Positions 4,870-52,972 of a DNA stretch of 64,000 nucleotides are shown one piece after another. The notes under the pieces were generated by a model that had not been told where the DNA came from, searched no databases, and saw only the letters and a list, made by a program, of their open reading frames with translations. Each line of letters begins with the position of its first letter. Position 1 is the first letter of the stretch. The position numbers were made by a program, and so were the translations under genes. The DNA is from Candidatus Levybacteria bacterium RIFCSPHIGHO2_01_FULL_41_15 (lineage in GTDB: Bacteria; Patescibacteriota; Microgenomatia; Levybacterales; UBA12049): NCBI GenBank assembly GCA_001782165.1, contig MFNV01000009.1:56123-120122 (forward strand), written 5' to 3'.

Positions 4870-5109
4870 GCTCTGTCAAGTAGTATTTTCTGTATCTCTT
4901 TTCTTTTTTTTATTGCCACTCCGCACGCTGAATGCATGATAAGTTAAGCGAACGACTCAGGGGGATTCCTCACAAACCTGTTGAGGAGGGGGTGAAATCA
5001 CCCGAGGAGTGAGCTTAACTTTGAAAGCATGAGGCAAGGCGTGGCAAGAGTTCCTTGTTCTCTTGTCGACACAAGAGAACAAGGAAAAATTTATGCTAAA
5101 CTATTTCTT

Positions 5110-5445
5110 ATGAGAAAAATCAGAAAATTCCTGCCACTACTTTTTCTCGGCCTTTCCCTTCTTGGAATTCTAGTTTTTCTAATTATAAACTTCCCTCCAA
5201 ATTTCTATATGAATTTTGGAATATTAAAGATTAATAGTTTTTACATCTTTTTAATTTCTCTCTTTGTCTCAGGCTTTGGGATTTTTTCTTTTATCTTAAG
5301 GAATTTCCGGCGAGGATTCTTTATAGGCTTATTCTCAGTTGTCTTTTTCTATCTCCGCTACCTTAATCTCACTCATATTTTTTTCCTTATTATGCTTCTT
5401 ATAATCTTTGTTTGTCTTGAACTGTTCTTTATTCATAAAAAATAA
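5110..5445 (+). CDS. Small polytopic membrane protein (about 111 aa, roughly 4 TM), function unknown
   Basis: The track ORF 5029..5445 starts inside a GC-rich hairpin; the internal ATG at 5110 (MRKIRKFLPLLFLG…) is a more plausible start. Hydrophobic throughout. Confidence 0.35.
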   Translation: MRKIRKFLPLLFLGLSLLGILVFLIINFPPNFYMNFGILKINSFYIFLISLFVSGFGIFSFILRNFRRGFFIGLFSVVFFYLRYLNLTHIFFLIMLLIIFVCLELFFIHKK

Positions 5446-5609
5446 TCGTCTTGTCTATAATTTTACTTCCTTAAATAAAAATGTCTGTCTTTTTCATGCT
5501 TTTAGGAAAAAGACGCAGAAAACTCCGCGATGAGAAATAAAAACAGCTTTGAATAGCTTGGTTGAAATAAATCCTTGTTCGCTTTTTCCTTGTCTGATAA
5601 AATTGCTTC

Positions 5610-7064
5610 ATGGACAAACCAAATAAATTTTATATTACGAACGCGATTCCTTATGTCAATGCAAAGCCCCACATCGGACATGCCATGGAGTTTGTGCAGT
5701 CGGATACCATTGCAAGATTTCATAGGCAGATGGGAGAAGACGTTCTTCTTCTTTGCGGTTCTGATGAAAATGCTTTAAAAAATGTTCAGGCCGCAGAAGA
5801 AGAAAAGATTTCTGTGCAGGAACTGGTTGATAAAAATAGCAAGCTTTTTGAAGACCTTGCAAGAAAATTGAATGTTCAATTTGATATTTTTCAAAGAGGA
5901 AGTGACCCAAATCATCATAAATCCTCACAAAAATTGTGGGAACTTTGTTTTAAAAGCGGGGATATCTATAAAAAACAATACACTGGACTCTATTGCGTTG
6001 GTTGTGAACTATTTTATGAAAAGAATGAGCTGAATGAAAAAAGCGAATGTTTCGAACACCCTGGAAAAAAACTTGAGAAGGTTTCAGAGGAAAATTACTT
6101 TTTCAAACTTTCTAAATACCAAGCTGAAATAGGAAAGATTATTAAATCTGATCAAATACAAATTACCCCTGAAAACCGAAAAAAAGAGGTTCTTAATTTT
6201 ATAAAACAGGGCCTTAAGGACATAAGCATATCAAGATCCAACAAGAGAGCCAAAAACTGGGGAGTTTCTGTTCCAAATGATCCGACTCAAAAAATGTATG
6301 TTTGGTTTGATGCTTTAAACATTTATCAAAGCGGAACGGGATTTGCACTAGATGATAAAAAATATAAAAAATGGTGGCCTTGCGACCTTCATGTTATAGG
6401 AAAAGGAATCTTAAGATTTCATGCCATTTACTGGCCTGCTTTTCTTCTATCTGCCGGTCTTGCCCTTCCTAAGAAAATTTTTGTACATGAGTACATAACT
6501 GTAAATGGACAAAAGATGTCAAAAACCTTAGGAAATGTGATCGATCCTCTAAGTTTGATCGAAAAGTATGGCACCGATCCCCTACGTTATTATTTCTTGC
6601 GTCACATATCGCCTTTTGTAGACGGTGATTTTTCGGAAGACAAATTTAAAAAAGTTTATAATTCCGATTTGGCAAACGGGCTTGGAAATCTTATCTCAAG
6701 AGTTTCAAAACTTTGCGAAAATTCTAATTATATTCAGATGGGGTCTGCCTTACGAATTTCGGAGCACTTAATACAAATTGAGGAATACTCAAAGGCAATG
6801 CTCGAGTTTCGTTTTAATGACGCTTTATCTTTTGTTTTTAGAAAAATCGCAGATTTAGATAAATTTATTAACAATGAAAGGCCGTGGGATTTGCTTAAAA
6901 ATGAGGACAGTAGATTAAAATCAATACTTGCTCATTCAGTCGATCAGATTCAGGAAATCGCAGCTCTTTTAGAACCGTTTCTTTCTGAAACCGCCAAAAA
7001 AATCGAAAACCAATTCCAAGGACCAGAAATAGTTTCTCAAAAGCCACTATTTCCGAGAATCTAA
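5610..7064 (+). CDS. metG: Methionyl-tRNA synthetase (class I aaRS, short form)
   Basis: 'PHIGHAME' (HIGH motif), 'KMSKTLGN' (KMSKS motif) and the MetRS anticodon-binding region. Confidence 0.92.
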   Translation: MDKPNKFYITNAIPYVNAKPHIGHAMEFVQSDTIARFHRQMGEDVLLLCGSDENALKNVQAAEEEKISVQELVDKNSKLFEDLARKLNVQFDIFQRGSDPNHHKSSQKLWELCFKSGDIYKKQYTGLYCVGCELFYEKNELNEKSECFEHPGKKLEKVSEENYFFKLSKYQAEIGKIIKSDQIQITPENRKKEVLNFIKQGLKDISISRSNKRAKNWGVSVPNDPTQKMYVWFDALNIYQSGTGFALDDKKYKKWWPCDLHVIGKGILRFHAIYWPAFLLSAGLALPKKIFVHEYITVNGQKMSKTLGNVIDPLSLIEKYGTDPLRYYFLRHISPFVDGDFSEDKFKKVYNSDLANGLGNLISRVSKLCENSNYIQMGSALRISEHLIQIEEYSKAMLEFRFNDALSFVFRKIADLDKFINNERPWDLLKNEDSRLKSILAHSVDQIQEIAALLEPFLSETAKKIENQFQGPEIVSQKPLFPRI

Positions 7065-14795: not shown

Positions 14796-16439
<1,644 letters not shown>

Positions 16440-16469
16440 TTAAATCAATTTTAAATTTTAAATTCCTTG

Positions 16470-16769
16470 CTATTCTAAAATAGCAAGGATGTCTTTCTGC
16501 TCGACAATTGTCCATTCCTCATTACCAACCTTAACATCAGATCCGCCCCATTTTTTATACATAACTTTTTGTCCAACTTTAACCGTCATTGGGATAAGTT
16601 TTCTCTCATCGTCTCTTGCTCCTTCGCCGACAGCCATGATCTTGCCTGTTTGGGGTTTTTCCTTTGCGGTATCTGGAAGAATTATACCGCTTGCGGTTTT
16701 ATCCTCTGTCTCAAGCGGTTTTATAAGAACATTGTCAAAAAGCGGTTTTATTTTTATTTTACTTGCCAT
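16470..16769 (-). CDS. groES: Co-chaperonin GroES
   Basis: 99 aa, 'IKPLFDNVLIKPLE…'. Lies upstream of groEL. Confidence 0.95.
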   Translation of the reverse strand: MASKIKIKPLFDNVLIKPLETEDKTASGIILPDTAKEKPQTGKIMAVGEGARDDERKLIPMTVKVGQKVMYKKWGGSDVKVGNEEWTIVEQKDILAILE

Positions 16770-16835
16770 AACTAAAAATTACTGACCAAAAAAACCTGCC
16801 CGCCATCGGCATTTGCCGAAGGCATTGCAGGCGGG

Positions 16836-16862
16836 TATCACTTGATAAAAGTGATTGCTAAA
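16836..16862 (-). promoter_or_regulatory. Degenerate CIRCE-like operator in the groESL leader
   Basis: Minus strand TTAGCAATC-ACTTTTATC-AAGTGATA, placed immediately downstream of a TTGACA-N17-TATAAAT promoter. Confidence 0.5.
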
Positions 16863-16891
16863 TTTATACAACAAAATGCTTTTTGTGTCAA
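16862..16891 (-). promoter_or_regulatory. groESL sigma-70-type promoter (TTGACA-17-TATAAAT)
   Basis: The reverse complement of plus 16886-16891 is TTGACA, followed by a 17-nt spacer, and the reverse complement of plus 16862-16868 is TATAAAT. Confidence 0.55.
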
Positions 16892-16912
16892 TAACCTATA
16901 GTATAGCACCCT

Positions 16913-17941
16913 TCAGTCGCTCTTCAAAAATTGTAATTCCTTTTTTATTTTTTGGGTCAGTCTATAACTATCTGCGTGATTTAGAAAGCCTAAATAAGCT
17001 GCTATGCTTTGATTAAGCGAGTACTGTAAAATTTTGCCACTCCTGAAATCTTCAATCTTATTTTCTATCTTTTTAAATATTCTATTTCTGGTTTTTGTAC
17101 AAGGCAGAATATGATGTGGTAAAACTATGTATCCTAAGAAATCAATTCCCTGGTTATATTTTCTAATTATTATTTTCTTTGAATGTAAGTCAAGGTTAAG
17201 ATTGTCTCTTAGAAACATTGTAATTATACTAATATACTTGGACAATTTTTTTAAATCTGGATCTAGAATTATAAAATCATCTGCATAACGAATATAATAT
17301 TTAACCTTTAATTTTTGTTTCACAAATTGATCTAGCTCATTAAGATATATATTTGCAAAAAGCTGACTTGTGAGATTTCCTATGGGAATTCCTCTTTCCT
17401 TTGAAAAACTCTTTAGAATATTTTCTAAAAGCCAAGTGAGATTCCCATCTTTTATTTTTCTTTTTATAATCGAAAGAAGAATTGCGTGATCAACGCTTTC
17501 AAAAAACTTTTTAATGTCAAGTTTTAAGACAAAGCAATCTTGTTTGTAATTCTTACTTACTTTCCTTATTAATTTGGAGAGTCTTTTAACAGCTCTGTGA
17601 GTTCCTTTATTAAGTCTGCAGGAATAAGAATCGTAGATAAAAATCTGATCAAAAATAGGTTCAAGGATAGATACTATAGCATGGTGAACTATTCTATCGC
17701 GCACTTGCGCTTTATGGATATGGCGGAATTTAGGATCGTAAATGTTAAAAGCCGTATATTTACCATGTCTGTAATTCCCGCTTTTTAATTTTTTATGAAG
17801 TCCAAAAAGATTATCCTCAAGATTTATTTCAAAAAATCGTACATCTTTCTTTCTTCTTTTGTCTTTCTTAAATTCATCCCATGCTTGAAATAAATTTTCT
17901 ATTGATATAATCTTTAGATAGAGGGTATGAAAAACTTTCAC
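16913..17941 (-). CDS. DGR reverse transcriptase
   Basis: RT motifs 'RDRIVHHAI', 'FVLKLDIKKFFESVDH', 'GIPIGNLTSQLFANIYLNELD' (IGxxxSQ, DGR-specific rather than QGxxxSP) and 'YIRYADDFIIL' (YADD). 342 aa. Confidence 0.85.
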   Translation of the reverse strand: MKVFHTLYLKIISIENLFQAWDEFKKDKRRKKDVRFFEINLEDNLFGLHKKLKSGNYRHGKYTAFNIYDPKFRHIHKAQVRDRIVHHAIVSILEPIFDQIFIYDSYSCRLNKGTHRAVKRLSKLIRKVSKNYKQDCFVLKLDIKKFFESVDHAILLSIIKRKIKDGNLTWLLENILKSFSKERGIPIGNLTSQLFANIYLNELDQFVKQKLKVKYYIRYADDFIILDPDLKKLSKYISIITMFLRDNLNLDLHSKKIIIRKYNQGIDFLGYIVLPHHILPCTKTRNRIFKKIENKIEDFRSGKILQYSLNQSIAAYLGFLNHADSYRLTQKIKKELQFLKSD

Positions 17942-17953
17942 GGCACAAAATTA

Positions 17954-17988
17954 GGACAGGACAGGACAGGACAGGACAGGACAGGACA
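17954..17988. repeat. (GGACA)x7 pentanucleotide microsatellite in the divergent RT/avd promoter region
   Basis: Seven perfect tandem copies, 13-47 nt upstream of the RT start codon. Confidence 0.9.
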
Positions 17989-18041
17989 GTAGTGAGTTTA
18001 ACATACCAATTTTCCAGAAACTTTACGATTTCTACAAATTA

Positions 18042-18332
18042 TTGTACCAATATTTAAAACTGTTTCCTCAGAAAGACCGTTATACTCTCGGGCAGAAAAT
18101 AGATAATCTTTCATTAACAATTTTTGAGATGGTAATTACGGCAGGGGCAATATCAAAAGAAAAAAAGCTTCCATATCTTGAAAAATCCATAGCTACATTA
18201 AATCTCCTGAAAATACTTATAAGACTTGCGAAGGATGTTAGGGCTTTGGACAATAAAAAATATTTAGAACTTCAAGAAAACCTCCAAGAAATTGGAAAAA
18301 TGCTTGGAGGATGGAAAAAATCTCTCCTATAA
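18042..18332 (+). CDS. avd: Accessory variability determinant (Avd-like four-helix-bundle protein)
   Basis: 96 aa with a TTG start. Segments 'LFPQKDRYTLGQKIDNLSLTIFEMVITAG' and '…LQEIGKMLGGWKKSL' parallel Bordetella phage bAvd ('…IAQSIPRKHGVAREMFL…VGRILGSWI'). Divergent to the RT. Confidence 0.65.
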   Translation: MYQYLKLFPQKDRYTLGQKIDNLSLTIFEMVITAGAISKEKKLPYLEKSIATLNLLKILIRLAKDVRALDNKKYLELQENLQEIGKMLGGWKKSLL

Positions 18333-18348
18333 ATAAGGAGATGCAAGG

Positions 18349-18475
18349 CACTTCCTCAGAGCGACCGCCCCAATTCGGATTGTGATTCTGCGGATTCAGA
18401 TCCCGATTGACATTCAGGTTGCCATTCGGATTGCAGTTGGCATTGACCACCTTACCGTCATTGCGCGACCCCAGC
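18349..18475 (-). repeat. DGR template repeat (TR); adenine-bearing strand is the minus strand
   Basis: 127 nt, identical to the VR except at 15 positions, all of which are T on the plus strand (A on the minus strand) in this copy. Its minus-strand translation is Asn-rich (NANCNPNGNLNVN…, AAY codons). Confidence 0.85.
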
Positions 18476-18792
18476 TTTGTTTTGTCCTATGCCATCTTTC
18501 TTTATCACCATGGTTTTTCTTTTAAATGGAATCACCATTGAATTTTATCTGGAAGAAGTCCCGATTTAATCGGAGACACCTTCACCAGCACAGAACAAGA
18601 AGTGTCTTGCTTTTCTTGCGTACTCTTTCAAAAACCTTAATTTTTGAAATTCTGACACAGAGTTGAAAAACAACAATTTCGGCGATCCCAATCCTTGAAT
18701 CGGGATTCATTAACCTACTCTCTTTGCTATAATAGCAGAAAAATAAAAAGTTTAAAAAATTTAAGAAGAATAAAGTATTAAAGGATTAAGTT

Positions 18793-19608
18793 TTATAACA
18801 CTTCCTCAGAGCGACCGCCCCAATCCGGATGGCGATTCTGCGGATACAGACCCCGAAAGACATACAGGTAGCCATACGGATAGCAGTAGGCATAGACCAC
18901 CCTACCGTCAATGCGCGACCCCAGCAGACGTGACCATGTAGAACCTTGGTCAAGATAGTTACCATCTAGAACTTCCATTTGTCTTGAGAAAATAGCATAA
19001 GTTATGAGTCTCTGTCCTCTTGTCCCCTGCAACTCAAAATGTTTCCTAAGTTGGTCTTCGTTTGTGTCAAGGTTTGGGGAATCAATGACACCTTCAACTC
19101 TAATATACCCCGTTCTATCAAACTCATCTTCTATTGGGGTGCCTTCTCGGACACTGTAGTTTTCCAATTCGGGGAACATCTTACCAAGCGTTATGAGACC
19201 TTCTTTTCCCTTAAGTTCTTCTGGTATACCGATTGTAAACGGGGAGAGTTCTATTCCCTTGATGTCGGCAAAAGGTTTTTTTAATCGTTCTTCAGTTGCG
19301 CTGCATGGTGCAATATCAAAAGTGAGACCTTCTTCTCCTCTTGGAACTTGCCAAAAAGCCTTTTGGAAGTTGGTAACTTTCTCAGGACTAAAGGGATTTC
19401 TGTTGAGTTCTTGAGCCGCTCGTCTCAGAAGATCTAGGGGGTCAGGTGGGTAAGACTCTACTTTTTCTTTTTCTCCTTTGCCTTCAGGTAGCGGAACATC
19501 AGAAATACCATGCTTATCTAAAAGCTCCTGTCTTAAGCCAGAAATTGCCCTAGCAATTCCTTTTATCCCCATTCTACTTAGTTCTCTTTCTGCATGTCTT
19601 AGTGACAT
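18793..19608 (-). CDS. DGR target protein (271 aa) with C-terminal variable region (putative C-type-lectin/FGE-like ligand-binding fold)
   Basis: The C-terminal 42 codons are the VR and encode a Tyr-rich segment '…VVYAYCYPYGYLYVFRGLYPQNRHPDWGGRSEEVL'. No signal peptide. The N-terminal domain is unassigned. Confidence 0.75.
   Translation of the reverse strand: MSLRHAERELSRMGIKGIARAISGLRQELLDKHGISDVPLPEGKGEKEKVESYPPDPLDLLRRAAQELNRNPFSPEKVTNFQKAFWQVPRGEEGLTFDIAPCSATEERLKKPFADIKGIELSPFTIGIPEELKGKEGLITLGKMFPELENYSVREGTPIEDEFDRTGYIRVEGVIDSPNLDTNEDQLRKHFELQGTRGQRLITYAIFSRQMEVLDGNYLDQGSTWSRLLGSRIDGRVVYAYCYPYGYLYVFRGLYPQNRHPDWGGRSEEVL
18799..18925 (-). repeat. DGR variable repeat (VR) with a GC-rich IMH-like 3' end
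   Basis: Direct repeat of the TR. The 3' 23 nt (coding-strand GGGGCGGTCGCTCTGAGGAAGTG) are identical between TR and VR, and all mismatches fall at TR adenines. Confidence 0.85.
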
Positions 19609-19732
19609 AGGGTTGGTTTATATCATACTATAAGTTGACTTGTCAATAACCTATAGTAGAAACGTGTCGGCTTCAATCTAATCGGGGTTGACATAACTTT
19701 CTTTCTTTTGTACGATAAATTCAGGTCAAAAT

Positions 19733-20872
19733 ATGTCATTATCGCCAAGACGTCTTATCCTCGTAGGTTTGGCAGTTATTCTCCTTATTGCAATCCCTCT
19801 TACTATTTATCTTGTTCAGAAACAGCAGGAATTAAGAGGAAGAGCCGCTCCTTCAACTACGCTCTCTGTTATGCCGGCAACTAAAACTGCGGCAGTCGGA
19901 CAAACAGTAAGCTTTGATATTGTAGTAAATCCGGGAACAAATCTTGTATCTGTATTGACTTTGGTTATAAATTACGATTCCACCAAACTTGAAACAGGCG
20001 CTTCTGCTTTTGTCAAAAATACAGAGCGGCCCCTAGATCTTATAGGAGATCCTGTCTATACTCCCGGAACGATAACGGCAAATCTTTCAACAGGGATAGA
20101 CACCACCAATGCTATAACTTCCCAAACTACCCTGGCTACAATAACCTTCAAAGCCCTTGCGACAACTGGATCAATTCCGACAGAGATCACCTTTGATCAA
20201 ACCAAGAGTCTTGTTTATCCTTTGGGAGCAGAAGAAAACCTTAATGTACTTAAAACCGTTAATCCTGCACGTTTAACTATAACCGGAGACTCAGCCATTA
20301 CTCCTACTCCAACTCCAACTCCCACGTCAACTCCCACTCCCACTCCAAGCCCAATACCAATCCCTACAATAAGTTCACCCACGCCGACATCTGCTCCGGG
20401 AGGAGGAGGACCGGTCAACCAAAACCCTGTTTGCTCAAGTCTTGTCCTTGACAGATCGTCCTCGGGAACTGCCCCCTATTCCCTGACATTCACGGCTTCT
20501 GGGACCGACTCTGATGGCACGATTACAAAAGTAAACTTTAGTTTTGGAGATGGGACAGTGCAAGATATAACGCAAGGGGGGGGAATAGGAACAAATACTG
20601 TAAATGCCCAAGTCTCTCATATTTATAATACAGCCGGGACATTTACAACGTCGGCAACCCTGACAGACAACAGCGGCGCAACCAGTAACTCTGTAACATG
20701 CAGTCAGACAATTACAGTAATCGCAGGAGGCACAGGAGGAACATCTCCTCCTGTTTTAGCAACACCTACTCCTACAATTGAGCCTTCGGGACCTTCGGAA
20801 ACCATAGTCGGAATAGGACTAATTGGAATACTTCTTACGATAATAGGAGGGGTAATTCTTCTTGCTCTTTAA
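19733..20872 (+). CDS. Cell-surface protein: N-terminal signal/anchor, beta-sandwich domain, PT-rich linker, PKD-like domain, C-terminal TM anchor
   Basis: 'TPTPTPTPTSTPTPTPSP' linker, a PKD-like 'VNFSFGDGT…HIYNTAGTFT' segment, and C-terminal 'PSGPSETIVGIGLIGILLTIIGGVILLAL'. Confidence 0.65.
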   Translation: MSLSPRRLILVGLAVILLIAIPLTIYLVQKQQELRGRAAPSTTLSVMPATKTAAVGQTVSFDIVVNPGTNLVSVLTLVINYDSTKLETGASAFVKNTERPLDLIGDPVYTPGTITANLSTGIDTTNAITSQTTLATITFKALATTGSIPTEITFDQTKSLVYPLGAEENLNVLKTVNPARLTITGDSAITPTPTPTPTSTPTPTPSPIPIPTISSPTPTSAPGGGGPVNQNPVCSSLVLDRSSSGTAPYSLTFTASGTDSDGTITKVNFSFGDGTVQDITQGGGIGTNTVNAQVSHIYNTAGTFTTSATLTDNSGATSNSVTCSQTITVIAGGTGGTSPPVLATPTPTIEPSGPSETIVGIGLIGILLTIIGGVILLAL

Positions 20873-51156: not shown

Positions 51157-51181
51157 GCTAAATCTATTTTACCACAATAAC

Positions 51182-52972
51182 CTATAATTTTGAAGCTGAA
51201 TTTACGGCCCTAAGAAGCTTAAGAAGTGAATCCAATTCTTTCTGAAGGACAAGTCTTTCCTTAGGTTGCCTCTGATTTAGGTTTTGGGATATACTTCTTA
51301 TTTTATTTCTGATATTTAAAACCTTAAGTTCATCTAGTACCTTCTCAACTTCTTCCTGATATTTTTTATCATCTTCAATCTTGGGAAGGGAAAAAAGAAA
51401 ACAAATGTCAAAGAGGGGTAAAATTTCTTTGGGAAGAGTTTTTGCGAATTTTTTCTCATCAAACTTTTCATTTCTCGCAAGATAGGCAGTAAGATTTTCG
51501 AGAATTTTTTTATAGGAGGGGGTATCAAAAGAATAATCAGAAAGATTTTTGAATACTAAGGCTGCCATCTCTTTTGGATTCTTCCCCTGAATGATAAGCG
51601 ATGTCAAATATTCCTCAAGAATTTCTTTTCTTGTTTTTTTGTCCTTCCCTATAGGAAACTCGGGAATTTGTGCCTCTTTTCTTAAGACTTTTTCAAGTTC
51701 CTTCAGAAGGCTATCAAAAGTTACTTCAAGTCTTAAAGAAAGTAATTTAAGATAGTGTTCTTTTACAATCTCGTTATCAATAAGAGATATAAAAGGCAGA
51801 AGATTTCCTGTTATTTTTTTCTTTCCTTCTCCCGTCTGTCTGTCAAATTTATTAAGGAAACTGTCAATCAAAAAGTCGTATATTCCTATATCTTTTTTAA
51901 GTGCTTTTTTGAAAAATAGAGGGTCTTTTTTGATTGCCTCATCAGGATCCTTAAAAGTTCCAAGATCTATTATTGTGGTGGTAAGGTCTTTCTTTTCAAG
52001 AGCTGCTAAGCTTCTTTTTATAGCCTCAAAACCTGCCTCATCCTGATCAAGACATAACGTCACTTTTTCGGCAAATCTTGACAGAAGAGAGACCTGATTC
52101 TCCGTAAGTGCCGTTCCTTTTATTGCAACAACATTCTTAATCCCTTGTGAATAACAGGAAATAACATCAAACTCTCCCTCAACTATTATTGCCCGGCTGT
52201 TTTTCTTAATCTCCTCTTTGGCAAGATTAAGCCCGAAAAACATACTTCCCTTGTGGTATGCAAGGGTATCCCGTGTATTTACATATTTTGACCCCGCCAA
52301 AGGCGGGGCTGATTCTCTTTCTTCTCTTAAAATCCGTCCTGAAAAAGCAACAAGATTATCTCTGTGATCATAAATTGGAAACATTATTCTGTCTCTAAAG
52401 AAATCTACAATTCTTCCTCCCTTTGAAAAAGAAAGACCTGATTCTAAAAGATCGGAAGGTTTATATTTTTTCTTTTCTATTAAAAATTTGGAGAGCGCAT
52501 ATCCCCTGCCCGGAGAATAACCTATTTTAAATGTTTCAATGAGCTTTGGGCTGATTTTCCTTTTATAAAGATATGAGAGCGCTTTTTTCCCAAGCGGGTG
52601 CTTTGTCAAAACGAAATGGTAAAAATCAGAGGAAAGATTATTTAATTTATAGATCTTTTCTTTTTGGGATGTTCCCTGTTTGACAAAATCGGTCTCTGAA
52701 AGCTCAACTCCTGCCTTCCTTGCAAGTATTCTTAAAGCCTCGATAAATTCGAGTTTTTCATATTCCATTAGAAACGTGTAGCAATCTCCACCCTTGCCGC
52801 AGCCAAAACAATGCCAAATCTGTCTTTCCGGAGATACCACAAAAGAAGGTGTTTTTTCGTTATGGAAAGGGCAAAGAGCCTTAAAATTCCTTCCCATTTT
52901 CTTAAGGGGAATATATTCGCTTATCAAAGAAGGCAAATCTATCTTTTCCCTAACTCTTGCAACTTCGTCCAT
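51182..52972 (-). CDS. dnaG: DNA primase
   Basis: 'CPFHNEKTPSFVVSPERQIWHCFGCGKGGD' zinc-binding domain and the TOPRIM 'IVEGEFD'. Confidence 0.93.
   Translation of the reverse strand: MDEVARVREKIDLPSLISEYIPLKKMGRNFKALCPFHNEKTPSFVVSPERQIWHCFGCGKGGDCYTFLMEYEKLEFIEALRILARKAGVELSETDFVKQGTSQKEKIYKLNNLSSDFYHFVLTKHPLGKKALSYLYKRKISPKLIETFKIGYSPGRGYALSKFLIEKKKYKPSDLLESGLSFSKGGRIVDFFRDRIMFPIYDHRDNLVAFSGRILREERESAPPLAGSKYVNTRDTLAYHKGSMFFGLNLAKEEIKKNSRAIIVEGEFDVISCYSQGIKNVVAIKGTALTENQVSLLSRFAEKVTLCLDQDEAGFEAIKRSLAALEKKDLTTTIIDLGTFKDPDEAIKKDPLFFKKALKKDIGIYDFLIDSFLNKFDRQTGEGKKKITGNLLPFISLIDNEIVKEHYLKLLSLRLEVTFDSLLKELEKVLRKEAQIPEFPIGKDKKTRKEILEEYLTSLIIQGKNPKEMAALVFKNLSDYSFDTPSYKKILENLTAYLARNEKFDEKKFAKTLPKEILPLFDICFLFSLPKIEDDKKYQEEVEKVLDELKVLNIRNKIRSISQNLNQRQPKERLVLQKELDSLLKLLRAVNSASKL

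Follow-up and report, generated by a model that had tools for sequence, protein, structure and literature searches.

In the genome of Candidatus Levybacteria bacterium RIFCSPHIGHO2_01_FULL_41_15, a diversity-generating retroelement (DGR) lies directly upstream of the groESL operon, bracketed by two perfect 18-bp direct repeats, each of which includes the -35 hexamer of a putative promoter. The stretch of DNA analysed (contig MFNV01000009.1, positions 56,123 to 120,122 of the forward strand; 64,000 nucleotides) is referred to here as the window. The arrangement was probably produced by one insertion of a compact cassette, consisting of a target gene with its variable repeat (VR), a template repeat (TR), the accessory gene avd and a reverse transcriptase (RT) gene, at the boundary between the -35 hexamer and the spacer of the groESL promoter; this insertion would have duplicated a conserved promoter element, both copies of which would since have been kept by selection. 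A first-pass annotation of the window had offered two readings of the repeats, namely (a) that they are a duplicated insertion site or att-like boundary of the DGR, and (b) that the target gene has acquired a copy of the upstream element of the groESL promoter, linking diversification to groESL-like expression. These are essentially right as two sides of one event; the att-like boundary and the link to heat shock are taken up separately below.

Identical 18-mers at both ends of the cassette

The forward-strand sequence TGTCAATAACCTATAGTA occurs exactly twice in the window (Table 1), with a start-to-start distance of 2755 bp, and the same two sites are the only ones found when up to three mismatches are allowed. 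The chance expectation for the 18-mer is 0.04, and two or more matches were obtained in none of 100 shuffles. The identity extends over exactly 18 bp, the neighbouring bases differing on either side of both copies. Read on the gene strand, the 18-mer consists of 12 nt, TACTATAGGTTA, followed by TTGACA, and both copies therefore end in this hexamer. On the groES side TTGACA is followed by a 17-nt spacer and TATAAAT, and on the target side by an 18-nt spacer and TGATATAAA, in which TATAAA is preceded by TG; both spacings were read directly and fall within the 17±1 nt expected of a sigma-70-type promoter. The perfect repeats described in the first-pass annotation, and the proper distance of each TTGACA from a -10 box, were thus borne out, as was the claim that the repeats delimit the block of RT, avd, TR and target, since nothing but DGR parts lies between the two copies.

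The structure recurs across many independent assemblies, and an assembly artefact was rejected on this ground. In the population from which the window derives, an identical GroES is encoded on 19 contigs, and an RT gene is upstream of it in all ten of the places listed; four of these ten contigs span both ends of the cassette and have the 18-mers 2755 bp apart, and the groES-proximal copy is visible on the remaining six. A DGR-free variant of this population, sought by means of the exact GroES sequence, was not found among the 10 listed of the 19 contigs.

By every feature tested, the element between the 18-mers is a genuine DGR. Its TR and VR form a pair of 127 nt with 88% identity, in which all 16 differences within the repeat are changes from adenine in the TR to a base other than adenine in the VR. 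The VR is within the 3' end of the target open reading frame (ORF), the RT has the motifs of the DGR type ([I/L/V]GxxxSQ and YxDD), and the accessory protein Avd is encoded. Examination of ORFs and Pfam matches between the repeats yielded only RT, avd and target, and no transposase or recombinase of the tyrosine or serine type. The 25 longest inverted-repeat pairs listed include no terminal inverted repeats at the cassette ends, RVT_1 is the sole Pfam domain of the RT, which has no endonuclease domain, and the right end of the cassette, which reads ...GACTGAAGGGTGCTA, has no 3' A-tract. There is no Rfam match in positions 16300-20000.

Empty sites in relatives

The gene order lepA, cohPKD (the cohesin/PKD gene, on the reverse strand), groES, groEL, PEGA is kept in 80 loci from other species, none of which (0/80) has an RT, avd or target gene between cohPKD and groES. 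About 30 of these relatives have (T/A)ACTATAGG(T/G/A)TA-TTGACA, in single copy, as the -35 region of groES (a consensus element also written (T/A)ACTATAGGTTATTGACA), and the 18-mer is exact at groES in L011, L014, L029 and L071. Directly upstream of the single 18-mer of the relatives is the divergent promoter of the cohesin/PKD gene. The layout of the window matches that of these empty sites on both sides of the cassette: the native cohesin/PKD context lies outside the left, target-proximal copy, just as it lies upstream of the single copy in the relatives, and the groES spacer, -10 and operator follow the right copy. Empty L118 and filled L119 are 98.4% identical on the groES side (1098 nt compared) and 94% identical on the opposite side (694 nt).

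On these comparisons, the groES-side 18-mer is the putative ancestral extended -35 element of the groESL promoter in a clade of Levybacteria. The first-pass annotation had proposed that related genomes lacking the DGR at this locus be examined for an empty site with a single 18-mer; such sites were found, with one 18-mer between the divergent cohesin/PKD promoter and the groES -10, and the pair L118 and L119 is one example of the support that they give to a duplicated insertion site.

Filled sites in other lineages

Cassettes are present at the same locus in two further groups of contigs, L091-L094/L108 and L095/L119, whose RTs (P0004 and P0003) are 68.5% and 70.2% identical, respectively, to the window RT in pairwise alignments. 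In both of these lineages, too, the 18-mer is perfect at each end of the cassette. The intergenic DNA next to the conserved 18-mers differs by substitutions and indels, and the groES spacer also varies between lineages. The target promoter past the left copy is conserved as TCAACTTATAGTATG(A/G)TATAAA, followed by eight bases and ATG. The identity of both copies at 18 of 18 positions in three lineages, at approximately 30% neutral divergence, points to purifying selection on both, which would make both copies functional. The suggestion that the target gene possesses a copy of the upstream element of the groESL promoter is thereby strengthened, the target-side copy being perfect in all three lineages. 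The link to heat shock that this suggestion implied did not survive: the shared part comprises the -35 hexamer and 12 upstream bases, and the operator of groESL that resembles the controlling inverted repeat of chaperone expression (CIRCE) is outside the duplicated 18 bp, so that the target would not share heat-shock control.

As a single original event would predict, homology among the right cassette ends of the window's own lineage (WIN), L091 and L095 extends as far as the 18-mer. The LepA subclade (79-85% identity) contains the three DGR-positive lineages plus several that are DGR-negative. The distribution of the cassette is at odds with the host phylogeny; for instance, GroEL of empty L014 is 96.4% identical to GroEL of filled L091. 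L091 and L119 share 94-97% identity over the avd-RT part, compared with ~80% for lepA and ~83% for groES, and the 5' part of the L095 target resembles the target of the window. No recombination breakpoint was found at the 18-mer; the drop in identity between L091 and L119 is located ~60 nt inside the 3' end of the RT gene. Mosaic cassettes with an identity step inside the RT gene indicate that ordinary homologous recombination moves cassette segments, and whole filled or empty alleles are probably exchanged between lineages by the same process. The counting of gains and losses on a tree was rejected as unreliable because the histories of GroEL and LepA conflict, indicating recombination. In L071, L111, L062, L072 and L102, GroEL is 71-74% identical and LepA 79-86% identical to the proteins of the window, and the groES promoter region is nearly as in close relatives; it looks as if groESL is a hot spot of recombination, or else as if groEL has been replaced.

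Distribution of the 18-mer beyond groES

In 1.37 Mb of DNA around the groESL operons of relatives, 30 of the 32 matches to the 18-mer with up to three mismatches are at the groES promoter. A generic promoter motif was rejected on the basis of this census and of the mere two matches in the window at the same tolerance. A metagenome scan for the exact 18-mer in the Joint Genome Institute (JGI) collection identified 36 stretches. Of these, 17 are single-copy groES promoters, nearly all beside the cohesin/PKD promoter (empty sites); two (L108 and L119) have two copies ~2.75 kb apart with a DGR between them; one (L122) is the left junction of a filled site; 11 have the exact 18-mer ~110 nt upstream of rpoB, with RpoB confirmed by Pfam in two; and five are miscellaneous. 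The 18-mer, judged by where it is found, is a predicted conserved extended promoter element of two housekeeping operons and not a generic motif, and the element shared with rpoB plausibly confers strong housekeeping transcription. The reservation of the first-pass annotation, that the 18-mer might prove to be a frequent promoter element at many unrelated genes throughout the genome, is apt insofar as the element is also found at rpoB on 11 other contigs, and otherwise is not, given its near confinement to groES.

None of the 11 rpoB-linked 18-mers is occupied by a cassette, and rpoB is not present in the 64-kb window. On the contigs concerned (L103, L104, L107, L110, L121, L125, L129, L131 and L134-L136), a conserved ACACTCT box, a hairpin and 7-8 consecutive U come after the 18-mer, an arrangement similar to a transcription attenuator or small leader RNA. 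A related motif had also been remarked upstream of rpoD in the window. The sequence TATAGGTTATTG is indeed present there (51175-51186, reverse strand), where it overlaps the stop codon of dnaG and precedes the rpoD ATG by 19 nt, with TGGTAAAAT directly after it; it lacks TTGACA, has a different architecture and amounts to a weak partial match. No description of the 18-mer motif was found in the literature that could be searched.

Related cassettes at other loci

Other genomes of the candidate phyla radiation (CPR) have this compact cassette too, at chromosomal sites with no relation to the groESL locus or to one another: next to a gene for a UvrD-type helicase (L098), between pnp and a gene for an AAA ATPase (L099), after suf genes (L100) and after a sugar transferase gene (L101). 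The target genes in all four have TTGACA at the same distance from the -10; the -10 block is CTTATAGTGTGATATAAA or nearly so in L098-L100, and L101 is the most diverged. A block of the form CTTATAGT(A/G)TG(A/G)TATAAA-N7-9-ATG is kept in most members of this cassette family, whatever the locus. The 12-nt element is missing from all four cassettes, and direct repeats flanking them do not exceed the shuffle level. The presence of TTGACA in cassettes elsewhere indicates that this -35 hexamer belongs to the cassette itself and to the groES promoter alike; thus, the minimal duplication is the 12-nt element, and TTGACA was either duplicated or was microhomology at the left junction.

The target promoter of the family (window 19609-19646; L098-L101) can be summarized as TTGACA-N5-6-CTTATAGTGTGATATAAA, with 7-9 bases to the ATG and no Shine-Dalgarno sequence, which suggests that target mRNAs of the cassette family are leaderless. 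In the window, the target mRNA is probably leaderless given the 8 nt from -10 to ATG.

The closest RT to that of the window (P0002, 79% identical) is encoded at another locus, upstream of a UvrD helicase gene. This locus and WIN share ...TGCTA a few bases past the RT stop codon and then diverge, which fixes the right end of the cassette. The locus between pnp and the AAA gene exists in three states: a full cassette in L099, a target gene only in L138, and no cassette in L139. In L138 (AAA protein 91% identical; positions 4968-6000), the target gene has a VR-like segment with no TR, avd or RT nearby, and may represent a stage of DGR decay or a target that is served in trans; in L139 (AAA protein 88% identical), an unrelated spacer of 358 nt takes the place of the cassette. 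At this locus, the cassette begins on the left with its TTGACA, which directly adjoins the stop codon of pnp, and on the right it overlaps a few bases of host DNA (TATAG). A general target-site duplication for the cassette family was rejected, as repeats at the four other loci do not exceed the shuffle level and the series of states at pnp/AAA reveals no duplication.

Probable origin of the duplicated element

In the course of events considered probable, the compact DGR cassette would have entered the groESL promoter between the -35 hexamer and the spacer, already equipped with its own leaderless promoter for the target gene, made up of TTGACA and an extended -10. The insertion would have duplicated at least 12 upstream bases of the promoter element, TTGACA being either duplicated with them or shared as microhomology. 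The groESL operon would have retained an intact promoter, composed of the right copy together with its own spacer, -10 and CIRCE-like operator, and the target gene would have gained the upstream element of the left copy, fused to the -10 of the cassette. That a duplication is seen at groES is understandable, since the promoter of an essential operon, once split between its -35 and -10, has to be restored if the insertion is to survive. Both copies would have stayed identical because each serves a promoter and is subject to purifying selection, and the 18-bp extent would then reflect the functional element under selection, not necessarily the length of the original duplication. The simplest account of the patchy distribution in close relatives invokes two processes, precise loss by recombination between the 18-mers and allele replacement by homologous recombination in the conserved flanks, either of which would restore a single-copy empty site.

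Several points weigh against such a single duplicating insertion. The cassette encodes no enzyme able to make a staggered duplication of 18 bp, and the comparison of filled and empty states at pnp/AAA (L099, L138 and L139) reveals no duplication. The GroEL tree does not unite the DGR-positive lineages as a monophyletic group, and the window RT is closer to the RT at a different locus (P0002) than to the RTs at the same locus, so that a single ancient insertion needs many losses or later exchange of cassettes. The promoter activity of both copies is putative, the evidence for it being consensus spacing and conservation, and we infer both whether a given difference in presence reflects gain or loss and how, at the molecular level, the duplication arose.

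A broader reading, which is considered unlikely, treats the cassette family as a discrete unit that is still mobile, or was until recently, and whose landing sites are the -35 hexamers of host promoters. Its own TTGACA would serve as microhomology, the upstream element would be duplicated, the host operon would survive and the target would come under a strong housekeeping promoter; the repeats would allow precise excision and exchange between lineages. As a corollary, the 18-mer would be the recognition site of an as yet undescribed CPR-wide transcription factor, or of an RNA polymerase contact, common to groESL, rpoBC and the DGR.

It is quite unlikely that the second copy has no causal link to the insertion, the 18-mer being a standard strong housekeeping promoter of which the target has a copy independently, through promoter swapping, convergence or local tandem duplication. 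The exact 18-mer precedes both groES and rpoB, operons with no relation to each other, in diverged genomes, which would accord with a reusable module under strong selection, and the TTGACA already present in the cassette family leaves only 12 bases to explain. However, convergence on 12 extra identical bases is very unlikely, the motif is essentially confined to groES in the window and in the 1.37 Mb of relatives' DNA, and the 12-nt element is missing from the four related cassettes elsewhere. Moreover, the second copy is exactly where a duplication upon insertion predicts it, with the cohPKD context outside and the cassette inside.

There is only a slim chance that the 18-mer is an attachment (att) site and the cassette a site-specific mobile unit, which would have entered the groES promoter independently in several lineages, creating attL and attR and permitting precise excision. 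Independent entry would explain why the same site and the same repeats are found in three lineages with RTs that are 69-70% identical, why the RT closest to that of the window (79%) is at a different locus, why presence and absence differ between very close relatives, why the DGR-positive lineages are polyphyletic in the GroEL tree, and why the cassette family is scattered over many chromosomal sites. Nevertheless, there is no recombinase or transposase between the repeats, the exact 18-mers linked to rpoB are all unoccupied (0/11), and related cassettes at other loci are without the 12-nt element or flanking repeats; for these three reasons the att-like boundary entertained in the first-pass annotation is not supported. 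Furthermore, the boundary of high identity between L091 and L119 is inside the RT gene and not at the 18-mer, as in ordinary homologous recombination, and the right junctions are homologous in all three lineages, as from one event.

Very improbable is retrotransposition, in which the RT of the cassette would copy it via RNA and target-primed reverse transcription would integrate the copy, a process that leaves variable target-site duplications of ~7-20 bp: the repeat is within this range, which is typical of non-LTR (long terminal repeat) retrotransposons, the cassette encodes an RT, and a shared strand would allow co-transcription of target, TR and RT. However, the insert includes its own promoter -10, which is upstream of any transcript from that promoter, avd is oriented the other way, an endonuclease domain, a 3' A-tract and duplications at other loci are all missing, and DGR RTs have been described as domesticated, with their mobility lost (PMC8632793).

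Other features of the cassette and its surroundings

The features of the region are listed in Table 1. The avd frame is open back through the adjacent repeat tract to a stop codon at 17952 (17955-18332, forward strand), and the Pfam bAvd match begins ~11 codons before TTG 18042, with no in-frame ATG, GTG or TTG earlier; the avd start codon may be non-canonical (ATA or ATT). The GGACA tract fills nearly the whole gap between avd and RT, and contigs of the same population differ in the number of its units (7, 10 or at least 11). The GGACA repeat is also present with the closest RT homologue (L097), and the lineages with RTs of 69-70% identity have a variable (GT)10-13 in its place (contigs compared: L004, L005, L009, L091-L097 and the window). 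The repeat between avd and RT looks like a contingency (phase-variable) tract, a candidate control of RT and avd expression. At the VR of L001 (7845-7971; JGI assembly of the same population), there is an N at four positions, two of which match TR adenines, and the VR in other assemblies of the population is the same as that of the window; the Ns of L001 hint at VR heterogeneity in the population, i.e. at an active DGR.

Table 1. Features of the DGR cassette, the groESL operon and the adjoining region of the window (feature, position in the window, strand, remarks)
Feature	Position	Strand	Remarks
groEL	14796-16436	-	ORF, Pfam and relatives
groES	16470-16769	-	ORF, Pfam and relatives; groES and groEL together span 14796..16769
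GC-rich hairpin followed by U7	16788..16834	-	groES leader; terminator- or attenuator-like in predicted fold
CIRCE-like inverted repeat, TTAGCAATC-N9-AAGTGATAC	16835..16861	-	groES leader; kept in relatives; hairpin in predicted fold
Putative groESL -10, TATAAAT	16862..16868	-	17 nt past TTGACA; kept as TGTATAAAT in relatives
groES-proximal 18-mer	16886..16903	-	putative -35 TTGACA at 16886-16891; exact match; same position upstream of groES in ~30 DGR-less relatives
Inserted DGR cassette proper	16904..19640	-	2737 bp between the repeats: target promoter -10, target gene with VR, spacer, TR, avd (opposite strand), simple-sequence repeat, RT
DGR reverse transcriptase	16913..17941	-	342 aa; Pfam RVT_1, E = 5.4e-25; motifs IGNLTSQ and YADD; stop codon 9 nt before the 18-mer
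(GGACA)7 simple-sequence repeat	17953..17989		between the divergent avd and RT genes
avd accessory gene	18000..18332	+	Pfam bAvd, E = 2.3e-21; start uncertain, no canonical start codon before TTG 18042
Template repeat (TR)	18349..18475	-	repeat comparison with VR
DGR target gene	18793..19608	-	271 aa; no Pfam match; VR at 3' end (18799-18925)
Putative extended -10 of target promoter, TGATATAAA	19617..19625	-	18 nt past TTGACA, 8 nt before ATG
Target-proximal 18-mer	19641..19658	-	putative -35 at 19641-19646 and 12-nt upstream element of the DGR target promoter; exact match; perfect at equivalent place in L091/L108 and L095/L119
Putative divergent promoter, TTGACA-17-TACGAT	19688-19716	+	directed away from the 18-mer, toward the cohesin/PKD gene
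Cohesin/PKD membrane protein gene	19733-20872	+	native left neighbour of the groES promoter in relatives

The CIRCE-like repeat in the groES leader is degenerate, with 8/9 and 6/9 matches to the two arms of TTAGCACTC-N9-GAGTGCTAA; it is conserved in relatives and has no counterpart at the target promoter. The GC-rich hairpin with U7 is the same in DGR-less L062, shorter in L132 and L017, and absent from most relatives. No terminator was found between the RT stop codon and the groES promoter, and read-through from the DGR into groESL is therefore possible. A short perfect hairpin, CCCCGAT-TAG-ATCGGGG, is located between the divergent cohesin/PKD and groES promoters in L029, L062, L091 and L132; its equivalent in the window (19659-19687) is degenerate, CCCCGATTAGATTGAAGCCG.

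Significance and comparison with known systems

DGRs have been reviewed as domesticated retroelements that are no longer mobile (PMC8632793), and a global metagenome survey of DGRs mentions only sporadic transfers (PMC8144416). A literature search turned up neither direct repeats nor empty sites reported for DGR cassettes, and no link between a DGR and a groEL promoter. The locus described here is a clean pair of filled and empty sites with the footprint of a duplication, and bears on how DGR cassettes reach new chromosomal sites in CPR genomes. It shows how insertion into the promoter of an essential operon can be tolerated, the duplication restoring the promoter, and it indicates a route by which a DGR target may be wired to a housekeeping promoter element. 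The conserved 18-nt element, found at groES in Levybacteria and at rpoB in other metagenome contigs, also offers a handle on transcription signals of organisms not yet cultured.

The cassette resembles the compact DGRs of CPR/Patescibacteria (PMC8144416) in its RT with DGR motifs, its bAvd protein, the restriction of TR/VR differences to adenines, the location of the VR at the 3' end of a small target gene, and its chromosomal position in a CPR genome. It differs from them in its position inside the promoter of the essential groESL operon, in the perfect 18-bp repeats of host promoter sequence, in the orientation of avd on the opposite strand, and in the variable simple-sequence repeat between avd and RT.

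As in the target-site duplications of insertion sequences (IS) and transposons, a short host repeat is present on both sides of the insert and in single copy at empty sites. Such duplications are typically 2-14 bp. The element in the window, in contrast, has neither transposase nor terminal inverted repeats, and its 18-bp repeat is longer than usual, coincides with a putatively functional element and has been maintained through a long evolutionary history; its length today may therefore be the outcome of selection and not of the stagger at insertion. Att-flanked genomic islands and prophages (e.g. those in tRNA genes, where the 3' end is duplicated and the gene restored) are similar in that an essential element is hit, the part that is needed is duplicated, and the repeats allow precise excision. 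However, no integrase is present here, the duplicated part is the -35 and upstream region of a promoter instead of the end of a gene, and the copies at rpoB are unused.

The groESL operons controlled by HrcA and CIRCE likewise have a promoter of the sigma-70 type followed by an inverted repeat in the leader, but the corresponding repeat of the window is degenerate and outside the duplicated segment, so that the DGR target would not inherit any control of the HrcA/CIRCE type. Hybrid promoters created by IS elements with an outward-facing -35 are comparable in that a -35 and a -10 of different origin are joined at the insertion junction. There the roles differ from those at the groESL locus, where resident DNA would provide the -35 and upstream element, the cassette would provide the -10, and the resident gene keeps a full second copy.

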